Of a stretch of DNA of 64,000 nucleotides, positions 7,986 to 47,664 are shown one piece after another (positions within the stretch are counted from its first letter, which is position 1; every line of letters starts with the position of its first letter). The position numbers and the translations under genes were made by a program. Source of the stretch: a virus (lineage: Duplodnaviria; Heunggongvirae; Uroviricota; Caudoviricetes); IMG/VR virus record IMGVR_UViG_3300047159_000049; one strand, given 5' to 3'. The notes below the pieces were generated by a model. That model worked only from the letters and a program-made list of their open reading frames with translations, had not been told where the DNA came from and searched no databases.

Positions 7986-8014
7986 TCTCGAACAATCGAT
8001 TATACGATTGTTTC

Positions 8015-8036
8015 GGGATTATTTTTTTTATTTCCC
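8015..8036 (-). repeat. AT-motif copy GGGATTATTTTTTTTATTTCCC
   Basis: Intergenic, hairpin upstream, 17 nt before the ATG at 8053. Confidence 0.7.
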
Positions 8037-8052
8037 TCACGGAGGATCGCAC

Positions 8053-20425: not shown

Positions 20426-21229
20426 ATGAGTAAAAAAACATTCAAATGCCCGTTCTGCTCCAAGAAATACGTCCTCAAAGACGCGATCTATGACCACATG
20501 GAGAAAGAGCATCACGACGACCTTTGCGGGCTGCCGGCATGCCAGGTGTGGTTCAATTGGAACAACGGATATCCCATCACCAAAGCGACAGGCAGATCCG
20601 TCATGAGCGGAAAGCCGACGAAGTTCAACGTCAATTCATGCAGATACGAGAGATTCGCCGACGACGAAGAGCGCAAGCAATATCGCGAATACTTCCGCCA
20701 GAATATGATAAAGGCGTTCGGCAAAGACAATCTTCTCAACGACATCGACCATCAAAAGGAGATGCTCGCCGACAGAGGGATATCAGGCCAATACCTTTGG
20801 AGCGATGGAAAGACGCGTACGACGTACACCGGCTCATATGAGAGAAAGTTCCTGGAGTTCCTCGATCTCTACATGGGATGGGACAATCCAGAGGACGTGA
20901 TGGCGCCTGCCCCTATGACGTTCCCCTACACGGACGACGAGGGAAAGAGCCATCTGCACATACCGGACTTCTACATATCCTCGCTCAATATGATCATCAA
21001 CGTGAAAGCAGCCGATAACATGCATTATCGCCTGAGGGACATCGCATATGAAAAACTTGAAGATGCCGCCATAAAACAGTCATCGTTCAATTACGTCAAG
21101 GTATACGACAACAATTTCGAGCCATTCGCAGACGCAGTCCAGACCATAAGGGAATCGGATCCAAAGGATAAGATACGAGTGTTCCTTGAGGATCCGGCGC
21201 CATCGGCAGACAACGGCATCGTACTGTAA
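20426..21229 (+). CDS. zinc-finger protein, possible nuclease-like C-terminus
   Basis: N-terminal CPFCSKKY...H..EKEHH C2H2-like finger. Confidence 0.4.
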   Translation: MSKKTFKCPFCSKKYVLKDAIYDHMEKEHHDDLCGLPACQVWFNWNNGYPITKATGRSVMSGKPTKFNVNSCRYERFADDEERKQYREYFRQNMIKAFGKDNLLNDIDHQKEMLADRGISGQYLWSDGKTRTTYTGSYERKFLEFLDLYMGWDNPEDVMAPAPMTFPYTDDEGKSHLHIPDFYISSLNMIINVKAADNMHYRLRDIAYEKLEDAAIKQSSFNYVKVYDNNFEPFADAVQTIRESDPKDKIRVFLEDPAPSADNGIVL

Positions 21230-21326: not shown

Positions 21327-22895
21327 ATGGCAAACATTGAACAGGCGAAACGAATCGCCAAAATCGCCAGCTATCTCAACATAGTTGACGGACACAAAGG
21401 ATTAGCGATCACACCGCTGATCTCAGGAGCTCAGGGCATCGGCAAATCGCAGATCTGCTCTGGAGCCGCCAAGGAAATGGGTGGATTCGGATTCACCATT
21501 GAAGGCGGCACCCTCAAGGACGGCGAGATCACCGGCCTTCCGCTTGCTTATCACGATCCGGTAACCAATGAAGACAAATTCAAATTCGTTCCGTATCACG
21601 TCACTTATTCGGTCATGAAGCTCCAAGACGAGATCTATTCTCACGCCACCAAAGAAGGCTTCCTCGGCGGCCGCGTTCGCATTATCGAAAAAGACATCAC
21701 AGATACTTTCAAAGGCCCCGATGGCAAAGATACTACCAAGGTCATCGCGCATGCCGGAGACACCGTTGTTTTCGATACGAAAGGGCACGTCTATCAAGTG
21801 GTCAGCAAATGGACCAATGAAGAAGCTGCCGTCAAAGGCGATCAGAATAAGCATCAGTTCGGCGAGGATCTCCTTCCTGAAGTCAAGCGCGAGCTCATCG
21901 AATCCGGAGACATCAAGCCGGTGATTCTGTTCTTCGATGAAATCAACCGCACTCCTCAAGAGACCATGAAGGAGCTGATGAACGTCATCCTCAACCGCGA
22001 GGTCAACGGCTACGAATTCCCGTGGTGGGTCTCCATCATCGCCGCCCAGAACCCGAGCTCTCAGAACTCGAGCTTCTCCGTCAACCAGATGGACCCTGCG
22101 CAGCTCGACCGTTTCATGAAGATCAAGGTCAACCCCGACTTCGAGAAATGGTGCCAGTGGGCGCTTGACCATGGCATGAACCTGGAATATCTCCAGGCGC
22201 TCACCGCGGCCAACTCCGGCCTTTCCAAGAACGACAACAACACGGTGTTCTGCGTCAAAGACGCCGGCACCGAAGATACCGAGAACATGGATCCGTCTCC
22301 ACGGTCTCACGAAATCTGCTCGAACATCATCAGCGGATACGATCTGGTCAAGTCCAGCAATCTCTTCACGAAGGAAGAGAAGGAAAGCCTCGACGCCGAT
22401 ATCGAGACCATGATCCTCGGCAAGATCGGCACCACCGCCGGCAACTCGATTCTCAAGTGCTTGCAAGATAAGAGCTCCCGCATCAATCCGAACGAGGTTC
22501 TCACCGGCGCCAGCAAAGAGATCGACAAATCGACCATGATGAAGCTCTCTCAGATGCGCTTCATGGCGAAGACGATCATGAGCCGCAGCATCGTCAACTA
22601 CATCGCAGACAACTACGATGCTTGGTTCGCAGCCCGCAAGGCAAATCCGAAATTCTTCGACAATGTCTTGGGCGCCGACGGCCAGTTCATCCAATTCGTC
22701 AAGTCCCTCGACCGCGCGAATGAGGTTGACCTCTATCGCTACGTCCGTGGCAAGCACACCGCTGAAGGCCGCGATCTCCGCCACGAGCTCGACGACGGCA
22801 AGTGCGCGCGGCTCGCTTCGGCGTTGATCAACGGCGTCAACTCGTCCTGCGAAAGCATCGACAAGCTCGACGCGATGACCAATCCGAAAAAATAA
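21327..22895 (+). CDS. MoxR/CobS-like AAA+ ATPase (AAA_5)
   Basis: Walker A GAQGIGKS. Walker B VILFFDEINR. AAQNP sensor. Confidence 0.65.
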   Translation: MANIEQAKRIAKIASYLNIVDGHKGLAITPLISGAQGIGKSQICSGAAKEMGGFGFTIEGGTLKDGEITGLPLAYHDPVTNEDKFKFVPYHVTYSVMKLQDEIYSHATKEGFLGGRVRIIEKDITDTFKGPDGKDTTKVIAHAGDTVVFDTKGHVYQVVSKWTNEEAAVKGDQNKHQFGEDLLPEVKRELIESGDIKPVILFFDEINRTPQETMKELMNVILNREVNGYEFPWWVSIIAAQNPSSQNSSFSVNQMDPAQLDRFMKIKVNPDFEKWCQWALDHGMNLEYLQALTAANSGLSKNDNNTVFCVKDAGTEDTENMDPSPRSHEICSNIISGYDLVKSSNLFTKEEKESLDADIETMILGKIGTTAGNSILKCLQDKSSRINPNEVLTGASKEIDKSTMMKLSQMRFMAKTIMSRSIVNYIADNYDAWFAARKANPKFFDNVLGADGQFIQFVKSLDRANEVDLYRYVRGKHTAEGRDLRHELDDGKCARLASALINGVNSSCESIDKLDAMTNPKK

Positions 22896-22906: not shown

Positions 22907-22963
22907 GAATGCCCCCAGGACCAACAATCCTGAGGGCGCCCCGATTTGGAAAGGGTATCAGAA

Positions 22964-24655
22964 ATGTCATCAGATTTAACCTCGGCTCAGGTAGCCGAGA
23001 AATACCGAGATTGCCAAGAAGCGATCCGGGCTGCAATGAAGCCTCATCCATCCGAAGACGGCGATCAGTCTGCAGCTGCGATGGTGGCTAAGATAGCGGC
23101 CTCGACGCCAGGAGTCATGGCGAGCCAGCAGCTAAACGACGAAGCCAGCCCGCAGAAATTCGACATCGACAAGTCGTTCATCCCCGTCATCGAGGACACG
23201 TTCCTTCCGGTCTATGACTGGATCAAGGCGTCGCTTGTCGTCTCAGAAGATTGCTACTTCGGCATCCTTTTGATGAACATGGATATGAAGTTCGACCTCA
23301 GCCAGCAAGGCTTCGTCGACATCGACGTGTCCAACGTCATCATGAAGCTCAAGATCAATCCGTTTTACATCATCAACTACACGATCAAGGAAGCCCGCAC
23401 GCTGATCGTCGCCGAACTGACGAAGATCACGATGCAGCATCCTCTCGACTATCTCAACATCAACCGCGCCAATGACCAAGGCGTCCACAATGAGCTTGAG
23501 AAAGCCTCAAGCGCGTCCATCTCCGAGATGCTGATCCACGATCTTTCGCTCAAGGCGAAGATGGATCCGACTTCCGGCAGCGGGCTTTCGATCCCGAAAG
23601 GGTACTATACGAAGTCCGATATGGAGCATGAAGTCGGGTACACCGCTCAGAAGGAATCCGACCTCAAATACTATTACGATTTCTATCATTCTCATCGCAA
23701 GCCTCAGAAGCCTGGCCAAAATCAGCAGAAACCCGGGCAAGGCCAAGGACAAGGTCAGGGCCAAGGACAGGGACAAAGCGACTCCGGTCAAGGCCAAGGC
23801 CAAGATCAGGGCGATCCCAATGGGATCTCAGCCCCAGGAAACTCGAACGGGCATCCTACTCATCAGTGGGAAACCCAAGGCGATCCCGACCTCGTCAAGA
23901 ACAACATCTCAGACAGCGTCAAGACCGCATGGGAGAAGTACCTTGAGCAAGACAATGATTCGTCGTCTCGTCTCAGAGGTCTCATGCCAGCCGATATGGT
24001 CGCGTCGATCGAGGATCTCCTCAAGAAGCCAAGAACCTCTCTGTGGAAGATCATCAAGAACATGCTCGGGACCCTTCCGGTTCCGTACAGAGCGACGAGA
24101 ATGCGGCTCAATCGCCGGCAGCCTTATCGCCCAGACTTGCCTGGACGCCTTCCGAAGTACAAGATCAAGATCATCGTGGCCATCGACACATCAGGGTCTG
24201 TCTCTGACGAAGCAATCTCATACTTCCTCAACGAGATCGCCCTTTTGTGCAAGAGCTATGAATCCGAGATCATCGTCATCGAATGCGATGCCGCCATCGG
24301 CGCCATCTACACGATGAAGAAGCCCGGCGACATCCATAAGGAAGTCAGCGGGCGCGGCGGAACCAGCTACATGCCGGTCATCAGATGGATCAACGGCGTC
24401 AAAGACGAATACTCCGACCCGAAATGGTTCGACGATCCGAGATGCGGCCGCCTTCAAGACGCGCTGCTCATCTACTTCACCGATGGCTTTGGCGACGACG
24501 AGATCGACAAGCCGAAGACCTCTAAGAACATCTGGGTCGTTCTGGATGATTCCGACAATCTCTCGGTTAAGAATCCGTACGGCCAAGTTCTGTCGATGTC
24601 ATCCGATCCGAATCCTGAATGGAAGAGCATCCACGGGAACAGCAGAGGCTATTAA
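22964..24655 (+). CDS. vWA-domain protein (CobT/ViaA-like partner of the AAA+ ATPase) with a GQ repeat
   Basis: MIDAS IVAIDTSGSVSD. (GQ)n low-complexity linker. Confidence 0.6.
   Translation: MSSDLTSAQVAEKYRDCQEAIRAAMKPHPSEDGDQSAAAMVAKIAASTPGVMASQQLNDEASPQKFDIDKSFIPVIEDTFLPVYDWIKASLVVSEDCYFGILLMNMDMKFDLSQQGFVDIDVSNVIMKLKINPFYIINYTIKEARTLIVAELTKITMQHPLDYLNINRANDQGVHNELEKASSASISEMLIHDLSLKAKMDPTSGSGLSIPKGYYTKSDMEHEVGYTAQKESDLKYYYDFYHSHRKPQKPGQNQQKPGQGQGQGQGQGQGQSDSGQGQGQDQGDPNGISAPGNSNGHPTHQWETQGDPDLVKNNISDSVKTAWEKYLEQDNDSSSRLRGLMPADMVASIEDLLKKPRTSLWKIIKNMLGTLPVPYRATRMRLNRRQPYRPDLPGRLPKYKIKIIVAIDTSGSVSDEAISYFLNEIALLCKSYESEIIVIECDAAIGAIYTMKKPGDIHKEVSGRGGTSYMPVIRWINGVKDEYSDPKWFDDPRCGRLQDALLIYFTDGFGDDEIDKPKTSKNIWVVLDDSDNLSVKNPYGQVLSMSSDPNPEWKSIHGNSRGY
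23736..23812 (+). repeat. tandem hexanucleotide (GGMCAR)n encoding a (GQ)n linker
   Basis: GGCCAAGGACAAGGTCAGGGCCAAGGACAGGGACAA... Confidence 0.6.
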
Positions 24656-26464: not shown

Positions 26465-26487
26465 AAAGACTAAAGGAGGCCCAAATA

Positions 26488-26505
26488 TGGACTAACGATA
26501 GCATC
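26488..26505 (+). promoter_or_regulatory. degenerate copy 4 (GGACTAACGATAGCATC) before the ClpA-like gene
   Basis: Partial match. Confidence 0.3.
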
Positions 26506-28770
26506 ATGACCTCTCCGATCGATGACGATGTCAACAGCATCTTCAACGAATTCATGGTGAAGTTCGCGTGCGATTATGGCCATACCACGATCGGCACTCA
26601 GCATCTTTATCTTGGAGTCATGGCTTTCTTAAACAAGCACTCCGGATCCGGAGACAAATACAGCGATCTGTTCGGCAAAATGCAAGCGATCCTTTCCAAG
26701 TACGGAATGTCGGATCTCGCTTTCGCCACGGCGATGTTCAGCATCTATCCGAAGTGCCATATCATCGATCCAAGCACCGATCCTGAGATGAGCTCTGACA
26801 ACGATATCCAGACCATTGTCTCAAAGCTTCAGCGCCAAGCGATCAAAGAGAGCCGAACGCTTGGGGTTCCGAATCTCATGATCCAGCTCTTCGCCGACAG
26901 CGACAAAGCTCCGTTCAATCTCAGAAAGATCTTCATCAAGGCTTTCACCGATACGAAGCGGCCGGAGAAAGTCCAGAGCATGTACGATGAATTCATCGAG
27001 ATGTTCAAGCCCGACGCCGAGACCAAATCGAGCAATCAAGGAATCGCTGATATCTGCGAGAAAACCGATTTCCTCACCGACATCAACGCTCTCGTAGCCG
27101 ATTGTCCGCATTCGATCGTCGGCGGAGACGATCTCATCAAGTCGATCTCGGTCGGCCTGATCGGAAAGAACAAACGCAGCGTCGTGCTCACTGGCATGGC
27201 CGGCGTCGGAAAGACCGAGGCGGTGTATGACTTGGCTCAGCGCATCAATGCTGGCAAAGCCCCTTCCGCCATCAACGTCAAGCATATCTATCGTCTCAAT
27301 CTCGATAAGATCTCCGCTGGCGGAACCTATCCCGGCATGATCGAAGGCCGCCTTGGCGTCGTTCTCGATGCCGCGGCCGCAGACCATAATTCGATCTTGT
27401 TCGTCGATGAGGCTCAGTATCTGTTCACCATCGCAGAGATGGGATCTCCGATCATCAGCATCATCAAGCCGTATCTTTCCGATGGAAGCGTGTCAATGAT
27501 CATGACGATCACCGACAGCGATTTCCACAAATACTTCTCCAAGGACAGCGGGTTCTCCCGCCGGCTTCGCGAGATCCATGTGAAAGAGCCGTCTGACGAA
27601 GACACCAAGACCATCCTGCTTGGCATCCGCGGCGACAAAGACAAATTCTATGGCATGACGCTCTCCGACGACATCGTCAGCGAGATCGCGACATTGTCGA
27701 AGAAATACTCGCTCAACAAAGCAAATCCTGATAAGTCGATCGACATGATGGACCTCGCTTATTCTTATGCGAAGGTCACTCATCCGGCAGACAAGAACGT
27801 CACCAAAGACGATTTGGTCGACGCCATCACGCAGCAATACGGAATCCACGTCTCGAAGGACAATGCCACCGAGACCGAGAAAGCGCTGCATGAGAAGCTG
27901 CTCGGGCAAGACGAAGCGATCAATCAGATCGCCTGGTCTCTCAGAACGATCGATCTTGGTTTGTACAATCCTGAGAAGCCGATGCTCTCGATGCTCTTCG
28001 CCGGACCGACCGGAGTCGGCAAAACCGAATCCGCCCGCATCATCGCGAAGAACTATTTCGGCAAGTCCGATGCGCTCATCAAACTGAGCATGGGCGAATA
28101 CGCGGATGAGATCAGCTACAACAAGCTCATCGGCTCCGCTCCTGGCTATGTCGGCTATGATGACGACACCGGCCTGCTCGCAAGCATCAAGCGCAATCCG
28201 TGCTCGCTCGTTCTCTTCGATGAGATCGAGAAGGCGCATCCGAAAGTGCTCAAGACCTTGCTCAGCATGCTCGACGACGGCATCGTGAATGACTCTCATG
28301 GCGACGAGGTTTCGTTCCGCAACGCCATCATCGTGTTCACGACAAACCTCGGATACGATTCAGAATCGACCAATACGAGCGGCATGGGCGAGATCAAGGT
28401 CATGGACGACAAGCACGACGCTGAGATGGCGATCACCAAGTACTTCCCGCCTGAGTTCAAGGCGAGAATCAACAAAGTGGTCATCTTCAACCGTCTTGAC
28501 GATCGCGTGTTCGACTCGCTGATCAAGAGATACCATGAGATGTATGAGACGCTCTCCGGAGGCAAGGTCAAAGTGGCCTTCACCAAAGAAGACATCGACG
28601 CGATCAAGGTCGCTGCCGACATCGAGAACAAAGGAGCCCGCGGGCTTGACGAGGCTGTTCGCAGCCAGATCCAGACCGCATATGAGCGCCAGATCTCCGA
28701 AACGGCTAAGCTCTTCGCGGCGTCTAAGCTGGCCACGGCGTCCAAAGCCACGGCCAAGAAAGGTAAGTGA
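26506..28770 (+). CDS. ClpA/ClpC-like double AAA+ unfoldase
   Basis: Clp-N-like IGTQHLYLGV. D1 GMAGVGKTEAV...ILFVDEAQ. D2 FAGPTGVGKTESAR...LVLFDEIEKAHP. Confidence 0.8.
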   Translation: MTSPIDDDVNSIFNEFMVKFACDYGHTTIGTQHLYLGVMAFLNKHSGSGDKYSDLFGKMQAILSKYGMSDLAFATAMFSIYPKCHIIDPSTDPEMSSDNDIQTIVSKLQRQAIKESRTLGVPNLMIQLFADSDKAPFNLRKIFIKAFTDTKRPEKVQSMYDEFIEMFKPDAETKSSNQGIADICEKTDFLTDINALVADCPHSIVGGDDLIKSISVGLIGKNKRSVVLTGMAGVGKTEAVYDLAQRINAGKAPSAINVKHIYRLNLDKISAGGTYPGMIEGRLGVVLDAAAADHNSILFVDEAQYLFTIAEMGSPIISIIKPYLSDGSVSMIMTITDSDFHKYFSKDSGFSRRLREIHVKEPSDEDTKTILLGIRGDKDKFYGMTLSDDIVSEIATLSKKYSLNKANPDKSIDMMDLAYSYAKVTHPADKNVTKDDLVDAITQQYGIHVSKDNATETEKALHEKLLGQDEAINQIAWSLRTIDLGLYNPEKPMLSMLFAGPTGVGKTESARIIAKNYFGKSDALIKLSMGEYADEISYNKLIGSAPGYVGYDDDTGLLASIKRNPCSLVLFDEIEKAHPKVLKTLLSMLDDGIVNDSHGDEVSFRNAIIVFTTNLGYDSESTNTSGMGEIKVMDDKHDAEMAITKYFPPEFKARINKVVIFNRLDDRVFDSLIKRYHEMYETLSGGKVKVAFTKEDIDAIKVAADIENKGARGLDEAVRSQIQTAYERQISETAKLFAASKLATASKATAKKGK

Positions 28771-28775
28771 TCGTT

Positions 28776-29456
28776 ATGTCAAAGCCAGTTATGGAAGGAT
28801 ACGAGCCTGAACAGCAGGCCGTCACATTCCAAGATTCTATCGCGACTTCCTTGTATAAGGATCGTGTTGTTCTGCTTTACGGCGAGGTGTCGGAGCAATC
28901 CGCCAGCCTCGTCATCGCGGAGCTCAAGAACCTCAGCAAGAAAGATCCAAAGAAGCCTATCGAGCTCGACATCATGTCGGGCGGAGGCGATATCACGGCA
29001 GGGCTCGCCATCGTCGATCAGATGATGGAGATCCAAGCGCCGATCATCACGGTCTGCAAAGGCTTCTGCGCCTCGATGGCGGCGGTCATCTTCTCGAGCG
29101 GCGATTACCGGCTCGTTCAGAAACACGGGTTCGTCCTGATCCATCAGGGCCGCACGTATCATCAGAACGAAATGGAGACCGTCCTCGACGCCGATGCCAG
29201 CCAGAAGATGATGCACATGCTCAATGACGCATGCCTCAATCTCTTGGCGGACAACTCCGGCAAGACCTATGAGCAGATCAACGCCGACACCCAGCGCGAC
29301 AACAACATGTCCGCCGAAGAGACCGTCAAATACGGTTTGGCCGACGCGGTCATGGAGTATGGCAAGCCGCTCGTCTTCAACAGCGACGACGTGTCTAAGC
29401 TCCGCAAGCGATACGTCCAGAATGCCGAGCGCAAAGCCAAGCAGTCTGGGAAATAA
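28776..29456 (+). CDS. ClpP-family serine peptidase
   Basis: GFCASMAA (Ser), VLIHQG (His) and a downstream Asp in the ClpP arrangement. Confidence 0.7.
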   Translation: MSKPVMEGYEPEQQAVTFQDSIATSLYKDRVVLLYGEVSEQSASLVIAELKNLSKKDPKKPIELDIMSGGGDITAGLAIVDQMMEIQAPIITVCKGFCASMAAVIFSSGDYRLVQKHGFVLIHQGRTYHQNEMETVLDADASQKMMHMLNDACLNLLADNSGKTYEQINADTQRDNNMSAEETVKYGLADAVMEYGKPLVFNSDDVSKLRKRYVQNAERKAKQSGK

Positions 29457-29470: not shown

Positions 29471-29514
29471 GATCGGGCCATTCCGGTCCCGGGCTTATGG
29501 AAGGAGGCACTATT

Positions 29515-30759
29515 ATGCCAATCAAAGTCAACGGAATCAATTTCAAGAACATCAAAACCAAGGATGACGACAGCAAGTCATCCGACGATGATGAGACATC
29601 GAAGAAGATCGATAAGCTCGCCGGAGATCAAGAAGCCTTGAAGAAAGCCGCTCTCAGCGACGATCCGGTTCAGTCCTTGGCTGAGTCCCAGGCTGAGCAA
29701 AGCGGCAAGATCGACATCCCGGATCACAATCCGATCTTCGAAGCTCTTTTGGACAACCGCGGGCCGATCGATTCGTTCCCGATCAGATTCTCCAGCAGCG
29801 ATCTTTCGAAGACGGAAGCCGCCCTCGGAGACGTCCAGGAAGCGAAAGACAAGCTCGGCGTCCCGAGCCTTTCGATCGCCTGCCTTAATCTAGACGCCAT
29901 CGATTACGTCCATTGCGACCGATATGACGACGTCCTCGGGATGCTCTCGCAATATTGCGGGGTAAGCCTCCCGACCAAGGATTCGCCCGAGAAGCTTTCG
30001 GTCGCTCTCAAGAGCGTCAAAGACACCCATGGCCTGAAGAACGCGCGCAGCATCATCGACGATTATGACATCGCCACGCCGATCCTTCACACCGATTGCT
30101 TCGTGCTCATCATGGCGTCCGACAGCAAAGACGAAACGAACACCGAGGCCTATTTCGCTCTGTACATCAAGGACGGCGACGCCCATATGTACATCCCGTC
30201 GTTCGGCAACACGTTCGACGTCAGCGACGACGGAAACAGCCTCATGACCTATGACAGCACCCCTGGTGCCTTCGTCAGCATCCAATGCGACCAAGACGCC
30301 AACGAAGAGAAGTGGGTCTGCGTCGTTTCCGATCCTGAGAGAATGGCGGCCGAGCTCAATCTCGCCGTGCGCGAAACCCCGAATATTTACGGCAGAACTT
30401 TCGTCAGCGAGTTCGGCGATCCGCAGGCGCTCATGGTCTCCTCGAGCCTTGACAGCGACATGATCCGCGTAGGATCGATCGCCAGCAACGGCAGCAAGGA
30501 TGCCCAGCGTTTCCTCATCGGCAATGGCAGCTCAGACGGAGTGGCCGACGGAGACTATGACTTCGCCGTCACGCCGACAGAGCATTTCTCGAGCACGAAT
30601 ATGCGCGCTCTCAAAGCATGGATCGGCACGTTCAAAGACGCGTACTGCCTGTCGTTCGTCAAAGACGCCCCGATCGCGATGACCCCGTCTGGGGCGATCG
30701 TGGCCCAAGTCGATTTCGGGAATCTCTCCGAGCATATGGCGGAGTGGTTCATCATCTGA
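29515..30759 (+). CDS. hypothetical protein
   Basis: ATG after a GGAAGGAGG RBS. Confidence 0.5.
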   Translation: MPIKVNGINFKNIKTKDDDSKSSDDDETSKKIDKLAGDQEALKKAALSDDPVQSLAESQAEQSGKIDIPDHNPIFEALLDNRGPIDSFPIRFSSSDLSKTEAALGDVQEAKDKLGVPSLSIACLNLDAIDYVHCDRYDDVLGMLSQYCGVSLPTKDSPEKLSVALKSVKDTHGLKNARSIIDDYDIATPILHTDCFVLIMASDSKDETNTEAYFALYIKDGDAHMYIPSFGNTFDVSDDGNSLMTYDSTPGAFVSIQCDQDANEEKWVCVVSDPERMAAELNLAVRETPNIYGRTFVSEFGDPQALMVSSSLDSDMIRVGSIASNGSKDAQRFLIGNGSSDGVADGDYDFAVTPTEHFSSTNMRALKAWIGTFKDAYCLSFVKDAPIAMTPSGAIVAQVDFGNLSEHMAEWFII

Positions 30760-30855
30760 TAAAAGATCCGCTGAGACCAATCATCTCAGCGGATTTTATT
30801 TTCCAGTGAATAGGAGCAACTTGTCAATATCAGCAAATCAAGCAATGCTGTTACT

Positions 30856-31284
30856 TTGCGCGATGGAACCAGTTTCGCAATAAACGGAAAGTACTATCAC
30901 GATCCAAGCGTAGCCATGCAAGACATCGTCGATAAAATCATGAATTCGTCAGGATGCAGCTCCAAGGAAGCATTCACCGTAGTCGATGGAAACAAGACTC
31001 TAACCGGATTCATAGATGACTGCCTTGCCAATCCTACTACTTATGGCAGCCTTTATGACGAAGGAAACGAGGGCAAAGTTCAATTTGGCGAAAACATGTG
31101 CATCGAATGCGAGCACACCAGCGGCGGAGACAATTGCGTTGATGTCTGCGTACTTGACATGTCGGCGGCATCGAAAGCCAACATGGACGAATACACCTAT
31201 ATGGCCTATTGCGCTGGATCCGAATTCTATTTCTCTGATCCACGCAATGGAAAGATGTACGCATTAATCGTCAACGTCGATTGA
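30856..31284 (+). CDS. hypothetical Cys-rich protein
   Basis: ORF with uncertain start. Confidence 0.35.
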   Translation: MRDGTSFAINGKYYHDPSVAMQDIVDKIMNSSGCSSKEAFTVVDGNKTLTGFIDDCLANPTTYGSLYDEGNEGKVQFGENMCIECEHTSGGDNCVDVCVLDMSAASKANMDEYTYMAYCAGSEFYFSDPRNGKMYALIVNVD

Positions 31285-31361
31285 TGAAAGAAGACAACGA
31301 TGGCTGGGCCCGCAACGGCGAGTCAGCCGAATGAGCCATTGGCTCAAAGGAGTTTAAAATT

Positions 31362-32669
31362 ATGACAGCATTGATCTGCACGATCGTGTTCGGCGTCCTG
31401 TTATTGGTCGCCGGGCTGATCGCAGCCATTTATCTGTACAATCGTTCTAAAGAAGACGCCGAGGATTCCAGCGGCAACACGCTCGTGTCCATGGCCGAAG
31501 AGGAATACGCCAAGGTCTATCCCGGCAATCCCATCAAGACATACGGCAACAAATACACAGCCGATTTCGTCAAGTTCTACAAAGGATACAAGAATTCCGC
31601 CGCCGCCAAGAAGAACGCCCCGAAGGGAAATAAAAAATATTTCGGCCTCGCGTTCGTCTGGCTACTCATCGGGATCATCCCGCTCTGCAATTCGTTCACC
31701 AAGGTCGGCCCGAATGAGGTCGGCATCGTTTACGATGAGCTGAACGGAGGCATCCAGGACTGGACTTATGGCGAAGGATTCCATTCCAAGTCTATCTTCC
31801 AGCACGTCACGACGATCCCAACCACCAACGTCGTCGTTCATCTCGAGAGCAACGAGACGAAGAACGACAGCCTAACCTGCCAGACGATGGATGGCCAATA
31901 CGCCAGCCTTGAGATCAGCCTGATCTATCACATCACCAAAGACAACGCCCAGTCGTTCTATCGCATCACGCAAGCGAGCAAGATGCCGGAGGACGCGATC
32001 AAGTCGATCATCAAGAACGTGATGAAGGAAGTCACGCCCCAATACACCATCTTCGAGCTTCTTTCGACGAAGTTCAACGACGCCAACTCCCAATTCCAGA
32101 CGAAATTCATCGTCGCCATGAAAGAGCAATACTACGTCACCGTCACCAATGCGTCGCTTGACGACATCGACGCCGGATCCGAGATCGAGGCGATCCTGAA
32201 GAAGGAAGCCGAGGCGAAGAAGCAGATCGAGATCGCTCAGGAAGAGGCCCAGGCCGCCGGCATCAAAGCCGCGTCAGACGCCGCCGTCCAGAGAACGCTC
32301 GCCGACGCAGACGCCTATGCGACCACCGTCAAAGGCAAGGCCGCAGGAGACGCTTCCGCGGCTTACATCAAATCCGTTGAGTCGATGATCAACCGGCTGT
32401 ACTGCTCCGTCAACGGAGTGGCCGACGCCGACATCGTCGTCGACAAGGACGGCTACGTCACATCGTTCAAGCCGGTCGAATCGTCCAAGGAGACGCTCAC
32501 TTATTCCAAGTGCGCCAATCTTATCCTTGGCATCATCTTCTATGATACCTGGGACGGCAAGCTCCCGGAAGTTCTCACCTCCGATCAGCTCAGCGCCCTC
32601 ATCGGATCGCTTCTCGCCAACGGAGCGTCGAGCTCTTCGAGCACCAGCTCCAGCTCGGCAGGAGCCTGA
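31362..32669 (+). CDS. SPFH/band-7 (HflK/C-like) membrane protein
   Basis: N-terminal TM helix. KVGPNEVGIVYDELNGGIQDW...LEISLIYHI SPFH pattern. Confidence 0.6.
   Translation: MTALICTIVFGVLLLVAGLIAAIYLYNRSKEDAEDSSGNTLVSMAEEEYAKVYPGNPIKTYGNKYTADFVKFYKGYKNSAAAKKNAPKGNKKYFGLAFVWLLIGIIPLCNSFTKVGPNEVGIVYDELNGGIQDWTYGEGFHSKSIFQHVTTIPTTNVVVHLESNETKNDSLTCQTMDGQYASLEISLIYHITKDNAQSFYRITQASKMPEDAIKSIIKNVMKEVTPQYTIFELLSTKFNDANSQFQTKFIVAMKEQYYVTVTNASLDDIDAGSEIEAILKKEAEAKKQIEIAQEEAQAAGIKAASDAAVQRTLADADAYATTVKGKAAGDASAAYIKSVESMINRLYCSVNGVADADIVVDKDGYVTSFKPVESSKETLTYSKCANLILGIIFYDTWDGKLPEVLTSDQLSALIGSLLANGASSSSSTSSSSAGA
31625..31645 (+). repeat. AT-motif copy GGGAAATAAAAAATATTTCGG
   Basis: Intragenic (SPFH gene), encodes GNKKYFG. 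Confidence 0.6.
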
Positions 32670-32671
32670 TC

Positions 32672-32992
32672 ATGCGCAAGCGCATCTTAATGGCGGCGAT
32701 CCTGCTGCCGATGGCGCTGGCATTAGCCGGATGCACCGATGGAAACGCCAATACCGCCAATTGGGACTACCCGGCGGTATATGGCGCCCATTTCTACGAG
32801 CCGCTCAAGAGCGGAAGGAACGACGTCAACATCGTGTCTTACTCGATGCTCGGGTATCACGACAGCGTCGTTATCAAGATCGTCACCGAGGACGACGTTT
32901 ATCTCGTCAGCCCGACGCAGGTCCTGCTGTTCCACGAGACCTGCCCGCATTGCGGGACGACGTACAAGTCAGCCGCCACGGCTGACAGCTGA
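32672..32992 (+). CDS. lipoprotein
   Basis: Signal peptide with lipobox LALAGC. Confidence 0.55.
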   Translation: MRKRILMAAILLPMALALAGCTDGNANTANWDYPAVYGAHFYEPLKSGRNDVNIVSYSMLGYHDSVVIKIVTEDDVYLVSPTQVLLFHETCPHCGTTYKSAATADS

Positions 32993-33234
32993 TGCCTTCC
33001 GAAGGATTCGTCCCGGAGTATTACGTAAGCATGCTCCGGGGCGTTTACAGAAAAGGCCAGCACGTCATCTGCGATCGGATGGTGTCAAACGGCCCCGGCC
33101 GGATGATACCGAGCGGATTCGACGGGACGATCAGCTTCGTCAACGACGACGGGAGCCTGGCCGTTCTGTGGAACGACGGGTCATCGATCCCGCTCGATCC
33201 GCTGAGGGATGACTTCCATGTCGTCCCTTGGTGA
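32992..33234 (+). CDS. hypothetical protein
   Basis: ORF of 80 aa, start overlaps the upstream stop (TGATG). Confidence 0.4.
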   Translation: MPSEGFVPEYYVSMLRGVYRKGQHVICDRMVSNGPGRMIPSGFDGTISFVNDDGSLAVLWNDGSSIPLDPLRDDFHVVPW

Positions 33235-34030: not shown

Positions 34031-37000
34031 ATGGAAACAGCCGAGCTGAAAGTAGTCAAAAGAGACGATAGCGTCGAGGATTTCGATATCAAGAAGATCG
34101 AACGCGCCATTGCGCGCGCCTGCCAGGAGACCCATGACGCGGAAGGCGAGAAGAACGCCAGCATCGTCGCCGAGAAGGCCCTGGACGAGTTCTCCGGGAA
34201 AATAAAAAATAATTCCGTCGGGATCGAAGACATCCAGGACGGGGTCGAGCTCGCGCTCATCGACACGGGCCACAAGCAGACCGCTTTGGCATACGCCAGA
34301 TACCGCGAGAAGCACGCCCAGATGAGAAACGGGCTGAACTACGGGAAGCTCGTCGACGACTACCTCGGCCAGAACGACTGGCGCGTCAAGGAAAACGCAA
34401 CCGTCAACTTCTCGCTCGGAGGGCTCGTGCTCTCGAACAACGGAGCGGTCACTGCCAACTATTGGCTCAACGACATCTACGACAAGGAAATCGCCGACGC
34501 GCACAGAAACGCGGATCTTCACCTGCATGACCTTAGCTTATTGAACGGTTATTGCGCAGGCTGGTCGCTCAAGCAGTTGATCAACGAAGGCCTCGGCGGA
34601 GTCCCGGGCAAGATCGCGTCTACCCCGGCTAGCCATCTTTCGACTCTCTGCAACCAGATGGTCAATTTCTTGGGCTGCTTCACCGACGATACCAGAATCG
34701 TGTTCGCCGATGGGACTAATCACAGCATCCGCGAGATGCTCGATTCAGGAAAGACAGAATTCATGGTCAGGTCATTCGATCCCAACACCGGCAAATACGT
34801 CGCGTCGAAGATGGATAACTTGCATAAGACGAGAACCGTTAGTCAGCTCATTGAGCTCACGACCGAAGACGGCCATAAGATCAAATGCACTCTTGACCAT
34901 AAATTCTATACGCTTAACCGTGGATGGGTTGAGGCGCAGGATTTAACCGAAGACGACGACGTCCTTCAATACAACTCAAAGGTTATGTACGTGTACAAAT
35001 TCACTTGCAAAGACACCGGAGAGTGTATGAAAATCGTATCTAAGAGAATTATCAATCAGACATCCGATGTTTATTGCGGAACCGTCCATAACGATTTTCA
35101 CGCATTCTTCGTAACCGATTCGGAATCATCAGACACCAGTATCTGTGCGAGAAATTGCCTACAAAATGAATGGTCGGGTGCTCAGGCGTTCTCGAGCTTT
35201 GACACGTACCTGGCCCCGTTCGTCAAGAAGGACAATCTGTCATACAAAGAAGTTAAGCAAGCCATTCAGAGCTTCATCTTCGGTGTCAACACCCCGTCCA
35301 GATGGGGCTGTGTCGACACGGACACCGAAGTGCTGTCGACCGGTGGATGGAAGAAATACGATCAGCTTAAAAAAGGCGATGACATTTACGTTTGGGACAA
35401 TGGGACGCTGACGACCAAAAAGGTCAACGAAGTCGTCGTGAAACCGTACAAAGGCGAGATGCACCGCTATCTTGGAGCCGGATACGAGCAAACCGTCACA
35501 CCTGAGCACCGTATTCTTGTCAAAAAATTCAATTTGAACGAATACGAAATCAAACATTCGTCTGACATTTTCAGTGTCAAGACTTCTTATTACCTCCCAG
35601 CATCTTTTTCGGGCAACGATTTGCCTGAATGCGGGGCTGAGCGATGACGAGATAAAACTGGCGGCGATGGTCTATACCGATGGAAGCATAGACGTAAGAA
35701 ACGGATCGATTCACAAAATAACGATATACAAATCTCCGAAAAGGCCAGGAAACGCCGACATCGCAAATGTGGCAAATTCGCTTTCTCTAGCTTTTTCGCT
35801 TTGCGAAGTAAAAGGCGGGTTTGATACTCCAGTAAATAAATACGTCTTCTTCGGTGACTCAGCAAGAAAGATTTTCGAACTCGTTGGCGGAACCAAAAAA
35901 GCCATTGATGACAAGTTCGTCAAAATGAGCAGAAGGCAATCGGAGCTGTTCCTTAGAACGTGGTCGAGTTTCGACGGAGATTTCGAAAAATTCAAACTTC
36001 AGTACGACAATGACGAAATAGCGGACAGGCTTCAAGAAATAGCATTGAGAGCCGGATTTTTGAGTTTCAAGAAAAAGACGAGTAAAGCGAACTACGTCCG
36101 CGTTCATGACGTCAAAAACATCCAGCCAAAACATAGGGAAGCCATTCAATATGACGGTCTTGTATGGTGTCCGAACGACGACGCCGGAACAGCCATTTTC
36201 AGAAAGAACGGATGCGTTTTCATTTCAGGACAATGCCAAGCGCCATTCACGAACGTCACGCTCGACTGGGTCGTTCCTGACGATCTGAAGAACCTGCCTG
36301 CCGTTGTCGGAGGCAAGATGCAGGACTTCACGTATGGCGAATGCCAGAAAGAAGCCGACATGGTCAACAAGGCCTTCATCGAAACGATGATCGAAGGCGA
36401 TGCCAATGGGCGCGGCTTCCAATACCCGATTCCGACTTACTCCATCACCAAAGGCTTCGACTGGTCCGATACCGAGAACAACCGTTTGCTGTTTGAGATG
36501 GCGGCCAAATACGGCATCCCGTATTTCTCAAACTACATAAATAGTTCGATGAATCCTCAAGATTGCAGGAGTATGTGCCCTTTGACGTCAGACACCGAGA
36601 TTCTCGTCAAAAACTCGCGTGATGGAATCGTCGTCAGAAAGATAGGAACTCTTTATGATGGATACAATCTCAAGAAAACGAACTATCTTTTCTGGAATGG
36701 GCATAAATGGGTGTCAGGCCATCCGGTTCAGATGCCGATGACACCGGTTTTCAAAATCGTCCTTTCGAACGGAACGACCGTCAAAATGGGCGAAAACCAT
36801 CTTCAGCCGACAAAGGATAGAGGAACGTTGAAAGCGAGCGATCTCGAAGTCGGCGACTGGCTTCCTTTCAACAAGACCCCGATTGAGACGGAAAGGCTCG
36901 GTGATTCCGACCTCGGTTTTGCGATAGGTGCTTACGCAGGAGACGGAAGTCACGACGAAGGAGCAGTTGTTTATTCTCTTAATGTCGATGTCGATCAAGA

Positions 37001-39830
37001 CACGGTTTCGCGCCTCACGGCTTTCTGGAACAGAGTAGGCTATCCGGTGAAAACGACGGTTTCCGAAAAAGTGGAATATGTCAGAGTCGATAAGAACCCG
37101 TTCGCCATTGTGTCGGAATACATCGATGGCGATGCTTTGACGAAGAAGCTTTCCAATCGTTGTTTCAATGCTTCGAACGAATTCAAAGAAGGATTCATAT
37201 CGGGTTTGAGAGCCAGCGATGGGTCGAAGGAGAAAAAGAGGATATACACTTCATCGGAAACGATGAAAAACGATGTGATGAAACTTTTGGCATCCATGGG
37301 GCACAAAGCTTTGTCAAACTACGTCGACAACAGAGAAAGTCGCTTATCCGACAAGCCGAATTACAGAATTGACTTCCCGGATCGCGAGCGCTATGGCGAG
37401 CTTTTCGATCAAGACGATTCCTACAATTATTACAAGATAGTGTCGATAGAGAAAACCAATGACGCATCAAGTGATTTTCTTTACTGCTTGGAGATAGACA
37501 GCGACGATCATGTTTTCGCTTTGGCATCAGGTCTCATGACTCACAACTGTCGTCTTCGCCTCGATCTTCGCGAACTGCGCAAGCGCAACGGCGGGTTCTT
37601 CGGAGCCGGAGAATCCACTGGCAGTATCGGCGTCGTCACCATCAACATGCCGCGCATCGGCTACCTCGCCGCCGACAAAGACGACTTCTACGCCCGGCTC
37701 GACCACATGATGGACATCGCCGCCCGCTCGCTTGAGATCAAGCGCAAAACAATCACCGACCTCTATAACCGTGGCCTCTATCCGTACACCAAGCGCTATC
37801 TGGGCGAAACCGCGTTCAAGAACCATTTCTCGACGATCGGCCTCGTCGGCATGAACGAAGCCTGTCTCAACGCCAAATGGCTGAAAGACGACCTCACGCA
37901 CAAGGACGCCCAGGACTTCACCGTCGAGGTCCTCAATCACATGCGCAACCGGCTATCTGACTACCAAGTCCAGTATCCATCGACACTTTTCAACCTTGAA
38001 GCGACGCCGGCGGAGTCAACGTGCGTTTCAGGAGACACCAATGTTTGGACTGATAAAGGCCGTATGACCGTCAACGATATCATCGCCGATAAAAATAAAA
38101 ATATCGGCATCATGTCATTCAACGCCGAAACCAACTCAGTCGAGTTCAAGAAGCTCGTCGACTGCTGGAAGACGAAGAAAGACGCCGAAGTGATGAAGAT
38201 CACCTTCTCCAATGGCGACAGCGTCAAAGTCACGCCTAACCATAAGATGGCGAAGCGGTTCGTCACCGGATGCGGTCCCAGTCGCAAATGCTGGATCGAT
38301 TACGTCGAAGCCGGATCCTTAAAAGTCGGAGACAGATTATTCGCGTGCCATGTTTATACTAAGAATTCTAAAGCATATGGAGAAACGTATCGCAATGTCG
38401 AATGCGTACTTGGCAAAAATAAAGGATCTTTCCCGATGCATCGTCTTCTAGCTGAATATTACTATGGCAAGATCCCAGACGGATTCGTAGTCCATCATAA
38501 GGATTTCGACAAGACCAACAACGCCAAAGACAACCTTGAGATAATGTCGGATGCCGATCACCGCCGGCTGCATGAGCATGACGAAGGCCGTAATTTTGTA
38601 AGATGCGTAGACGGCTCCGCCAACCCATTCTTCGGCAAGCATCACACCGAAAAATCAAAAGAGCTTATTTCCGAGACGAAGAGGGAAACCAAAGACGAAT
38701 GGTATCCTAAGTTCCTTGAGAACATGGCATCCGAAGACACCCGCAGAAAGATGTCTGAAGGGAATAAGAAAAAGAGCTTCGAGCAGTATTCGAGATACAT
38801 GCCGGAATGCTCAACCGAAGCCATAATCGCTAAATGGAAGGAAAACAAGAGCATCGGCGAAATCGCCAAAGAGCTCGGAGAGCCTTACACTTACTCGCTC
38901 GTCAAATCGCGCCTGAAGCATGCCGGCCTGCTTCCAAACCATCAGATCGTCAAGATCGAATACCTCACCGAGAGGGAAGACGTCTACGATCTCGAAGTCG
39001 AAGGCAACCACAACTTCTTCATCAGCGGCGGCGTTGACGACGCGGTGCTGGTGCACAACTGCTTCCGCCTCGCCAAGCACGACAAGGAAATGTATCCCGA
39101 CATCATCACCGCCGGCAAATCCGGCGAGACGCCTTACTACACCAACAGCTCGCACCTCCCCGTCGGATACACCGACGACATGTTCAGCGCGCTTGACGTC
39201 GAGGACCGCTTCCAGACCCTATACACCTCCGGTACCGTCTTCCACGCCTTCCTCGGGCAGCGTCTGCCCGACTGGCATTCGTGCATGAGGCTCGTCCGCA
39301 AGATCGCGGAGAACTACAAGCTGCCGTACTTCACCATGTCGCCGACCTATTCCATCTGCCCCGACCACGGCTACATCGTCGGCGAGAAATGGAAGTGCCC
39401 GATCTGCGGCAAGGAGACCGAGGTCTACAGCCGCATCACCGGATACTACCGCCCGCTCAAGAACTGGAACGCCGGCAAGATGCAGGAGTTCCATGACCGC
39501 AAGGAATACGATTCCTCGAAAGAGGAAGTCCATGACGGATGCAACGCCTGCTCCCTGGAAAATAAAAATATTTCCGCCGAGGCGCCCAAAGTCGATCATC
39601 TGATGCTGTTCACCAACCCGACGTGCCCGAACTGCAAGATGGCGAAGATGCTGCTCGACAAAGCCGGGATCAAGTACGACAACATCGACGCGTCGACGCA
39701 TCTCGACCAGGTCAACGCGTTCGGCATCACCGCCGCCCCGACGATGATCGTCCCGGATGGGGCCTCGTTCGACGTCTACAGAAACGCCTCGGAGATCGCC
39801 GGATGGATAAAATCGCGCTCCAACGCGTGA
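34031..39830 (+). CDS. nrdD: anaerobic ribonucleotide reductase NrdD with ATP-cone, four inteins and a C-terminal glutaredoxin/NrdH-like domain; apparent +1 frameshift near 35.6 kb
   Basis: Extein strings NQMVNFLG / LQNEWSGAQAFSSFDTYLAPFV / NTPSRWG / QAPFTNVTLDW / RSM|CRLRLDLRELRKR / FNLEATPAEST|CFRLAKHD. Zn ribbon CPDHG...CPICG. Glycyl-radical RITGYYRP. CPNC redoxin domain at the C-terminus. Confidence 0.9.
34195..34215 (+). repeat. AT-motif copy GGGAAAATAAAAAATAATTCC
   Basis: Intragenic in the NrdD ATP-cone, encodes GKIKNNS. Confidence 0.7.
34676..35155 (+). mobile_element. intein 1 in NrdD (mini-intein, about 160 aa)
   Basis: Cys start after NFLG. Internal TVHN. Ends ...ICARN followed by Cys and the extein LQNEWSGAQAF. 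Confidence 0.6.
35309..36233 (+). mobile_element. intein 2 in NrdD (LAGLIDADG type; C-terminal boundary uncertain; contains the frameshift)
   Basis: Starts RWG|CVDTDTEV. LAAMVYTDGS motif. Extein resumes at CQAPFTNVTLDW. Confidence 0.55.
35574..35647 (+). other. frame change (+1) between two NrdD ORFs inside intein 2
   Basis: Two ORFs overlap here in different frames. The second frame carries the LAGLIDADG motif. A T5 run lies at about 35604-35608. Confidence 0.6.
36576..37547 (+). mobile_element. intein 3 in NrdD (double LAGLIDADG)
   Basis: RSM|CPLTSDTEILV ... LGFAIGAYAGDGS ... FISGLRASDGS ... LMTHN|CRLRLD. Confidence 0.8.
38022..39059 (+). mobile_element. intein 4 in NrdD (HNH endonuclease type)
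   Basis: AEST|CVSGDTNVW ... HHKDFDKTNNAKDNLEIMSDADHRRLH ... VLVHN|CFRLAKHD. Confidence 0.8.
38088..38108 (+). repeat. AT-motif weak variant
   Basis: Inside intein 4, encodes DKNKNIG. Confidence 0.3.
39557..39575 (+). repeat. AT-motif copy, palindromic GGAAAATAAAAATATTTCC
   Basis: At the junction of the NrdD core and the redoxin domain, encodes ENKNIS. Confidence 0.7.
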
Positions 39831-47643: not shown

Positions 47644-47664
47644 ATTCCTGTAGGAGTGATAATC

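Follow-up and report, generated by a model that had tools for sequence, protein, structure and literature searches.

Introduction

To our knowledge, every characterized partner of ClpP (ClpX, ClpA, ClpC, and ClpE) uses a hydrophobic loop, [LIVM]-G-[FL], for docking. ADEP-type antibiotics likewise target the hydrophobic pocket of ClpP that receives this loop. In Escherichia coli ClpAP, the ClpA loop I617-G618-L619-I620 sits in a ClpP pocket formed by L23, L48, F49, A52, Y60, Y62, F82, I90, M92, F112, L114, and L189 (bioRxiv 10.1101/820209). Here, we describe an adjacent pair of genes for a ClpA-like unfoldase and a ClpP peptidase (positions 26506 to 29456) in a 64-kb stretch of DNA, referred to below as the window, from the tailed-phage record IMGVR_UViG_3300047159_000049. 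The analysis is computational throughout, and the numbering is that of the window. We consider it somewhat probable, at roughly 0.55 for the two proteins working together, that this pair constitutes a dedicated and probably self-exclusive ClpAP-type protease of the phage.

Clp genes have been described in several large phages. Iyer et al. reported ClpP, ClpA, ClpX, and ClpS in jumbo phages, as well as a pair consisting of a MoxR ATPase and a vWA(metallopeptidase) protein, and suggested anti-host or assembly roles (PMC7824862). Seven Clp genes are dispersed in Agrobacterium phage Atu_ph07 (PMC6102473); like the window phage, this phage combines unfoldases with ClpP in a jumbo phage (a set of ClpX, ClpA, ClpB, ClpP, and ClpS), but its genes (gp2, gp292, gp492, gp676, and gp708) are scattered and form no operon. 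Phage G carries adjoining genes for ClpP and ClpX (gp257-gp258), both of whose products were found by virion proteomics, and encodes its head protease separately (PMC12484599). This megaphage therefore also has a peptidase next to an unfoldase, yet the partner is a single-ring ClpX, an altered docking interface has not been reported for it, and both the phage lineage and the host are different.

A further comparison is offered by the lone ClpA-like proteins of RaK2-like phages, GAP32, SCTP-2, and many IMG/VR jumbo phages. They share the ClpA architecture and are 31 to 34% identical to the window protein but have a canonical S-I-G-[VYF] loop (SIGV in RaK2 and SIGY in SCTP-2) and no ClpP beside them; presumably, they use the host ClpP or act alone. 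A preliminary description of the window had held that phages usually carry only a ClpP-like prohead protease. Given the documented ClpA, ClpX, ClpP, and ClpS genes of jumbo phages, this needs correcting: what is rare is the adjacency of ClpP. In view of the genes listed by Iyer et al., Atu_ph07, and phage G, a phage-encoded Clp protease is already known. New in the present case are the coupling of a ClpA-type unfoldase to ClpP, the gene block in which the two are embedded (MoxR-vWA-ClpA-ClpP-o420), and noncanonical docking elements that appear to co-vary.

A ClpA-type unfoldase and a ClpP peptidase encoded side by side

The first gene of the pair (26506..28770, plus strand) encodes a ClpA-type two-ring AAA+ unfoldase of 754 amino acids (764 in relatives), as judged from Pfam, PHROG, NCBIfam, and alignments. 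Its Pfam matches are AAA_2 (1.8e-44), AAA_lid_9, and AAA; PHROG places it with phrog_4871, “ATP-dependent protease” (2e-143), and the best NCBIfam model is that of ClpA (TIGR02639), at 383 bits and under the equivalog cutoff of 993. As the preliminary description had it, Walker A and B motifs are present in both AAA modules. The first module, D1 (27193..27414, plus strand), contains the Walker A motif GMAGVGKT (27193-27216, amino acids 230 to 237), the pore loop AGGTYPGMIE (27316-27345), and the Walker B motif ILFVDEA (27394-27414, with ILFVDE at amino acids 297 to 302). The corresponding elements of D2 (28003..28236, plus strand) are GPTGVGKT (28003-28026, amino acids 500 to 507), GSAPGYVGY (28132-28158), and LVLFDEIEKA (28207-28236, with LVLFDE at amino acids 568 to 573). 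Pore-loop aromatic residues are kept in both rings, as TYPG in D1 (AGGTYPG, compared with AGTKYRG in E. coli) and as GYVG in D2. When the protein was aligned to solved structures with phmmer, E. coli ClpA matched in one unbroken stretch (amino acids 90 to 676), whereas ClpB and ClpC matched in two stretches, indicating an unfoldase without an M-domain. The spacing from one Walker A motif to the other is 270 amino acids, compared with 278 to 283 in ClpA-like and 320 to 336 in ClpB/C-like viral homologs. PADLOC models DolB and PDC-M37B also matched D2, solely via the generic AAA_2 domain, and no defense-system assignment was made.

The Clp-N domain attributed to this protein holds at the level of the fold, while Pfam gave no Clp_N match in the unfoldase at E<=0.01. 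A profile of the clade N terminus (approximately the first 195 residues) matched ClpC N-domains in the PDB at E=2e-4 and little else of note. For an AlphaFold2 model of amino acids 1 to 195 (pLDDT of 77.8), the ~40 best Foldseek matches in the PDB were nearly all Clp N-domains, with probabilities of 0.9 to 1.0 and target-normalized template modeling scores of ~0.6 to 0.7 (single-domain targets); the exceptions were ClpT1 and two ClpC2 entries labeled as C-terminal domain. Together, profile and model thus indicate a very divergent Clp_N-type domain with its linker (26506..27090, plus strand), in which the predicted repeat helices are TIGTQHLYLGVM (26587-26622) and GVPNLMIQLF (26863-26892), both on the plus strand.

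The second gene (28776..29456, plus strand) encodes a ClpP peptidase of 226 amino acids, identified through Pfam, NCBIfam, and alignment, within an open reading frame (ORF) that spans 28767-29456. It matches Pfam CLP_protease at 1.9e-40 and 139.1 bits (gathering score of 20.2), and in this protein and all its relatives, Ser, His, and Asp residues correspond in alignment to S97, H122, and D171 of E. coli. On the plus strand, the triad is found in CASMAA (29067-29084), LIHQG (29136-29150), and QRDNNM (29292-29309). The probable start is the ATG at 28776, 5 nucleotides (nt) past the unfoldase stop codon, rather than the GTG at 28767; a third candidate is the ATG at 28791. The choice is based on an MSK N terminus common to a 57%-identical ortholog and on a Shine-Dalgarno-like AAAGGT 11 nt upstream. 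Alignment shows that the conserved GERxxDIYSRLL motif is absent from the N terminus. Both family assignments thus stood up to profile searches (AAA_2 and CLP_protease), and the peptidase gene directly follows that of the unfoldase with its catalytic triad complete, as first described.

ClpP-fold head proteases are common among tailed phages, and the top PHROG matches of the window peptidase are labeled “head maturation protease” (phrog_94, 2.8e-32). The gene might accordingly be read as a capsid (prohead) maturation protease beside which the unfoldase lies incidentally, but we consider this extremely unlikely. The PHROG alignment is confined to the protease core of far longer profiles. Among NCBIfam models, those of ClpP proper gave 139 bits (NF001368) and 122 bits (TIGR00493), below their respective cutoffs of 249 and 308.6, compared with 76 bits for the ClpP-related head-maturation model NF045542, which has a cutoff of 120. 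The protein, at 226 amino acids, has no scaffold or capsid fusion, and beyond the clade, it is most closely related to ordinary ClpPs of cells. For 20 kb to the left and right, the window has no gene for a portal, scaffold, or major capsid protein; ClpP is surrounded there by MoxR, vWA, the unfoldase, ORFs without assignment, SPFH, and the anaerobic ribonucleotide reductase NrdD. Moreover, the ClpXP pair of phage G coexists with a separate head protease (PMC12484599). The scores, the triad, and the lack of capsid, portal, and scaffold neighbors thus identify the peptidase, on sequence grounds, as ClpP proper; neither a grouping with prohead proteases nor a colocation with capsid genes, the pattern that would be at odds with the preliminary description, is seen within the window.

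The peptidase gene is followed by a gene for a 420-amino-acid protein (29497..30759, plus strand), here called o420, with homologs of 418, 471, and 481 amino acids in the related contigs L257, L169, and L081, respectively. Wherever the sequence of a phage lineage reaches that far, o420 always comes after ClpP, except in L008/L173. Directly after the o420 stop codon lies a strong intrinsic terminator (30763..30805, plus strand), with an 11- to 12-bp GC-rich stem (GATCCGCTGAGA / TCTCAGCGGAT) followed by TTTTATTTT; ClpA, ClpP, and o420 are therefore most likely transcribed as one unit. A promoter scan of the window returned a count no higher than the shuffled expectation and was not used. As for o420 itself, no match was found among Pfam, PHROG, NCBIfam, PADLOC, and PDB profiles, and a set of 5.8 billion proteins yielded a single near-identical homolog. 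A single-sequence AlphaFold2 model was unusable (pLDDT of 35.6).

Overall, the window pair resembles E. coli ClpAP in having two rings without an M-domain, a Clp_N-type domain, Walker A and B motifs twice over, pore tyrosines, and a ClpP with a Ser-His-Asp triad (MEROPS S14). It differs in its low identity (~31 to 34%), in a shorter ClpP gating loop, in an N-domain that is ~50 residues longer and Pfam negative, and in the lack of an adjoining clpS. In addition, the window genes are adjacent and coupled, whereas E. coli has clpA and clpP at unlinked sites.

A noncanonical docking loop and a charged ClpP pocket

An IGF/L-type loop for ClpP docking, for which the preliminary description had suggested checking D2, was not found there. 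At the position of the IGL docking loop of ClpA, alignments place S-G-M-G-E-I-K-V (28378..28401, plus strand), compared with S-I-G-L-I in E. coli. This position lies in a helix-loop-helix of D2, as in ClpA, and M-G-E-I of the window aligns with I-G-L-I, breaking the [LIVM]-G-[FL] rule at the third residue. The relatives have the tripeptides IGE, AGL, QGV, SGF, GIM, and AFM at the same place. The facing pocket of ClpP is also altered, including the strand IELDIMSGGG (28959-28988, plus strand). Its 12 contact positions read L K N K E D E V K L Q M, so that 4 are hydrophobic and 8 are not, 6 of them being charged, and the pocket cannot be called hydrophobic. By comparison, the 149 nearest ClpP cluster representatives, drawn from a library of 1.84 billion proteins, typically have 9 or 10 hydrophobic residues and never more than 5 charged ones (0 or 1 in 121 of the 149).

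Loop and pocket appear to co-vary across lineages when aligned sequences are compared. With the pocket reduced to the positions of Y60, Y62, F82, I90, M92, F112, L114, and L189, E. coli combines the loop SIGLI with the pocket YYFIMFLL. The corresponding combinations are GQGVV with QYFIRFLV in L169, SSGFV with QYDCKFLK in L081, and GAGLI with WYSVCFTL in L008. In the window, GMGEI is found with EDEVKLQM, and in L257, AIGEI is found with EDEVKLQI, while L005 has GGIMG with KEEFTYS and L004, a bacterial relative, has TAFMS with KEEFTYSR. Among the other viral ClpA/C-like proteins in IMG/VR, 66 of 79 have a loop of the type [ILVM]-G-[FM] (IGF, MGF, LGF, or VGF), and essentially none of these has ClpP within 10 kb. 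At one further locus, L013, it is ~8 kb off. Phages leaning on the host ClpP may thus keep the universal loop, while this clade, with a ClpP of its own, would have drifted to a private interface.

A noncanonical loop and a charged pocket are also what might be expected if the unfoldase worked without ClpP, as a chaperone, disaggregase, or translocase for folding or assembling the very large virion, perhaps with the MoxR-vWA pair, and if ClpP acted on its own or together with an ATPase of the host. For ClpA, ClpX, and MoxR-vWA of jumbo phages, roles in assembly or as translocases have been proposed by Iyer et al. (PMC7824862); the lone ClpA-like gene of RaK2 sits amid virion structural genes, and the genes for MoxR, vWA, the acidic protein, and ClpA are always contiguous in the present clade. 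We nevertheless regard this as an improbable alternative. ClpP adjoins the unfoldase in every clade member, also in a bacterial genome without MoxR and vWA, and only 5 nt separate the unfoldase stop from the ClpP start. Furthermore, the loop and the pocket change in parallel across lineages, and the canonical IGF loops of the host would probably not fit a charged ClpP pocket, which would leave this ClpP without an activator.

Several other observations weigh against a protease formed by the two proteins. The docking tripeptide has Glu where Phe or Leu normally inserts, the aromatic residues are gone from the ClpP pocket, and the loop and pocket facts, taken alone, are most simply read as a failure of the two proteins to dock. 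ClpP has an N-terminal gating loop 8 to 9 residues shorter than that of E. coli. Both proteins score far under the NCBIfam equivalog cutoffs, and by this measure, the unfoldase (383 versus 993 bits) is not a member of the ClpA equivalog. The co-variation comes from only ~5 independent lineages, with residues mapped by alignment, and the region from MoxR to the ribonucleotide reductase is syntenic throughout, so adjacency may partly reflect general genome collinearity. With a noncanonical loop and a charged pocket, the case for docking is made from co-inheritance and co-variation and not directly.

The window unfoldase is also truncated at its start. Compared with L249 (99.5 to 99.96% identical) and seven other contigs, the window is missing 494 nt; in alignments to L249 (7209-7702), L250, and L253, the extra nucleotides fall between 26489 and 26493. 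Lost with this segment are a conserved gene for a 150-amino-acid acidic protein and the initial 17 nt of the unfoldase gene, and the window unfoldase begins at Met11. A deletion scar (26487..26495, plus strand) consists of a 2-codon mini-ORF (ATG GAC TAA) behind the Shine-Dalgarno sequence of the lost acidic-protein gene. Either the window represents a naturally occurring deletion variant or the loss is an artifact of assembly. As it removes the normal start and the Shine-Dalgarno sequence, the unfoldase may be poorly expressed in this genome, which is a further point against a working protease here.

Conservation of the gene block and a bacterial copy

The order MoxR ATPase, vWA-metallopeptidase, small acidic protein, ClpA-like unfoldase, ClpP, and o420 is conserved in at least five diverged phage lineages. 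The first gene of the block encodes a MoxR-like AAA+ ATPase (21327..22895, plus strand; Pfam AAA_3, phrog_1297), with orthologs 5' of the ClpA-like gene in L003, L005, L008, L081, L169, L257, and L168. Its partner (22946..24655, plus strand) is a vWA protein (Pfam DUF2201, 1.6e-15) with an N-terminal metallopeptidase-type region; identity over the clade is 36 to 63%, and DUF2201_N was detected in the L005 ortholog. The same two genes are known as a chaperone/co-chaperone pair from group 2.2 jumbo phages (PMC7824862), where they have not been described as linked to ClpA or ClpP, whereas in the window and all clade members, they stand 5' of the ClpA-like gene in one block. In L005, a gene for translation initiation factor IF3 (L005 5780-6292) lies just 5' of the MoxR-vWA-ClpA block.

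The ClpA-like/ClpP pair is present in every relative found. Identity to the window is 57 to 60% for L003/L257, 36% for L005, 33% for L008/L173, and ~33% for both L081 and L169; the pair was also found in the near-identical contigs that carry the block (L168 and L249-L256) and in the bacterial contig L004, the overall range being 33 to 60%. The ClpA-like gene of L081 is broken by two group I introns (L081 11392-11659 and 11834-12111; Rfam RF00028, 98.5 and 85.4 bits). An IMG/VR scan with the single unfoldase sequence found nothing, and an alignment query was needed. Seeded with the alignment, the search found ClpA/B/C-like genes on more than 500 viral contigs, and 80 loci were kept. ClpP lies within ~2 kb in 2 of these 80 (L008 and L081), both belonging to this clade, and neither a ClpA-like gene nor ClpP was found at other viral MoxR/vWA loci (0 of 73). 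A scan of genome contigs was swamped by generic ClpC and ClpB sequences (Firmicutes, Actinobacteria, and others) and was uninformative as to the clade and its host.

The bacterial copy in L004 has an unfoldase 56% identical to the L005 type and a chromosomal context of pst/phoU/phoBR, LacI, and rpmG. Its unfoldase stop codon overlaps the ClpP gene, which is followed by a gene for a 394-amino-acid protein, and MoxR and vWA are absent. The 394-amino-acid protein is a possible member of the o420 family: BLASTP between it and the window o420 was not significant, and a weak link (E=0.009) exists via L169 only. The trio (L004 9336-15816) is flanked by an Apyc1-like metallo-beta-lactamase (MBL) hydrolase and a DUF4143 ATPase (PADLOC candidate defense gene PDC-S01, 5.8e-117), and many contigs, the longest of 153 kb, carry it. 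These observations point to a module of phage origin that has become fixed in a defense or mobile island.

The existence of this homologous trio on a bacterial chromosome, with 56% identity to a phage copy, raises the question of whether the phage genes were taken from a host only recently and ride along as passengers without a phage-specific function. We find this very unlikely, since their position is conserved over phage lineages down to 33% identity and they are at most 37 to 43% identical to anything cellular. The two group I introns in the L081 unfoldase are typical of long-resident, conserved phage genes. Finally, the mobile or defense-type neighbors of the bacterial copy (Apyc1-like MBL and PDC-S01) suggest transfer from phage to bacterium.

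A facultative SPFH-lipoprotein cassette

An SPFH protein and a lipoprotein encoded nearby had been taken to fit a proteostasis or membrane module. Genes with a Band_7 domain and a lipobox are indeed present, but they lie behind a terminator and are absent from several relatives. Two ORFs (29497-30759 and 30856-31284) separate ClpP from the SPFH gene. The second of them, o142 (30856..31284, plus strand), encodes 142 amino acids from a TTG start (153 as called in relatives), the start being uncertain. The SPFH/Band 7 membrane protein (31362..32669, plus strand; 435 amino acids) matches Pfam Band_7 at 7.4e-23 and 81.9 bits (gathering score of 23.6) and phrog_200; the HflK model gave 21 bits versus a cutoff of 159, so the protein is not assigned to the HflK/HflC equivalogs. 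Its hydropathy profile shows N-terminal hydrophobic helices at amino acids 5 to 23 and 94 to 112 with a lysine-rich loop between them, and by the positive-inside rule, the SPFH domain is predicted to face outside the cytoplasm. The lipoprotein (32672..32992, plus strand; 106 amino acids) begins 2 nt after SPFH and has a signal peptide with a hydrophobic segment at amino acids 5 to 23 and the lipobox L-A-G-C (MRKRILMAAILLPMALALAGC); it is co-inherited with SPFH in L249-L255.

Together with a small ORF, o142, SPFH, and the lipoprotein gene make up an accessory cassette of ~2.4 kb (30760..33196, plus strand). L168, which is 98 to 99% identical on both flanks, is exactly without the cassette, and eight other near-identical contigs carry it. 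An 11-nt direct repeat, GATCCGCTGAG (30765-30775 and 33196-33206), brackets the cassette, the left copy lying inside the terminator stem; this is consistent with deletion or insertion of the cassette by recombination between the repeats. The SPFH gene is also absent from this place in the L257 (57 to 60%) and L008/L173 lineages. An SPFH ortholog that shares the C-terminal motif YDTWDGxLPEV sits directly between the ClpA-like and ClpP genes of L081 and L169, and some functional affinity is therefore possible. SPFH thus appears to belong to the gene pool of the clade and to recur at the locus, but it is facultative. A role for the cassette as an obligate part of the machine was ruled out by the L168 indel and the terminator; from its sequence features, it would be a separately transcribed, outward-facing accessory module.

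Known SPFH-protease systems include HflK/C-FtsH and the stomatin PH1511 with the STOPP/NfeD protease PH1510 (PMC2636767, PMC4208085). The window likewise has an SPFH gene near an energy-dependent, ClpP-fold protease, and the predicted outward topology is HflK/C-like. It differs in having neither NfeD nor FtsH, a soluble Ser-His-Asp protease, and an SPFH cassette that is facultative and separately terminated. A membrane-associated protease module of SPFH, ClpP, and unfoldase, with SPFH as scaffold or substrate, is possible but, in our view, quite unlikely. Such partnerships do recur (NfeD1b has a ClpP-type domain, PH1510 cuts the stomatin C terminus, and HflK/C and YbbK bind FtsH), and the placement of SPFH between the ClpA-like and ClpP genes in L081/L169, and three genes past ClpP in the window lineage, would fit. 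However, the cassette lies behind the terminator and is absent from L168 and from the L257 and L173 lineages. ClpP has no NfeD domain or transmembrane segment, Pfam detects no NfeD domain in any neighbor, and the triad is Ser-His-Asp, not the Ser-Lys dyad of STOPP. Finally, the SPFH domain is predicted to lie outside the cytoplasm, whereas the ClpA-like protein and ClpP have no export signal.

The phage and other genes of the window

The window belongs to a jumbo phage known only from metagenomes. Its gene content includes a family-B DNA polymerase, topoisomerase IA, RNase H, a virion structural protein, an intein-ridden NrdD, a P-type ATPase, and an RNA polymerase beta-like protein of 1,445 amino acids. 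The latter (49202-53539, minus strand; phrog_3148, 3.5e-142) is of the phiKZ/AR9 type and is 31 to 37% identical to the versions of AR9, PBS1, and Staphylococcus jumbo phages, its closest named relatives being AR9, PBS1, Staphylococcus, and phiKZ-type jumbo phages. This gene places the window phage among the jumbo phages that encode a multisubunit RNA polymerase of their own. Near-identical DNA is found in a 219-kb JGI contig (L249) and several Logan assemblies, and more distant relatives are IMG/VR contigs of 127, 214, and 289 kb. A megablast of window positions 26506-29456 and 40000-64000 against INPHARED phages gave no match, so there is no close named relative in INPHARED. Scans of the window for tRNAs and with Rfam gave no matches, and the virion-type gene (8008-9486) is the sole one in the 64 kb.

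The NrdD gene (34031-39830) is split into overlapping ORFs (34031-35647 and 35574-39830) and has intein-splicing, HNH, and NUMOD3 domains and a C-terminal glutaredoxin. In near-identical relatives, it is a single ORF of at least 1,932 amino acids that leaves the locus (L250) or is in at least three pieces (L249). Cargo that is odd for a phage comprises a P-type (E1-E2) cation-transport ATPase (58714-61245, minus strand) and a TROVE/Ro-like protein with DUF2828 and DUF7788 (13895-15517, plus strand). Two DUF7487 paralogs (20426-21229 and 47656-49164) are also present, the latter with an additional MTES_1575-type restriction-endonuclease-like domain.

Discussion

The preliminary description suggested an autonomous proteolytic machine, perhaps serving host takeover or stress. 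The intact motifs of the unfoldase, the triad of ClpP, and the co-inheritance of the two genes agree with this proposal; the canonical docking loop that would connect them is absent. From such patterns, we infer complex formation, the exclusivity of the interface, the substrates, and the timing of expression. In the dedicated ClpAP-type protease that we favor, a hexameric two-ring unfoldase would pick proteins through its divergent Clp_N-type N-domain, and the pore loops of D1 and D2 would unfold them and thread them into the ClpP chamber with its Ser-His-Asp triad. The ClpA-like protein and ClpP would be translationally coupled and produced, with o420, from one transcript ending at the intrinsic terminator. 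If the loop and the pocket drifted together, the pair probably recognizes only itself and would be insulated from the ClpP, ClpX, and ClpA of the host.

More tentatively, and in our view less likely than not, the clade may have an orthogonal Clp protease, in which docking was rewired from a hydrophobic to a largely polar or electrostatic interaction (M-G-E-I-K on the unfoldase; E, D, E, K, and Q in the pocket). Such a protease could not be taken over by the ClpX or ClpA of the host and would not leak onto host ClpP, providing a private degradation channel in infection, which may couple to an SPFH membrane scaffold in some lineages.

If the pair does not dock, the locus is an ordinary addition to the known chaperone and protease genes of jumbo phages. 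If it does, it would show a route to respecifying the interface of a AAA+ protease and would offer synthetic biology a ready orthogonal degradation module. It would also mean that large phages run proteolysis insulated from that of the host, with a bearing on host takeover and anti-defense.

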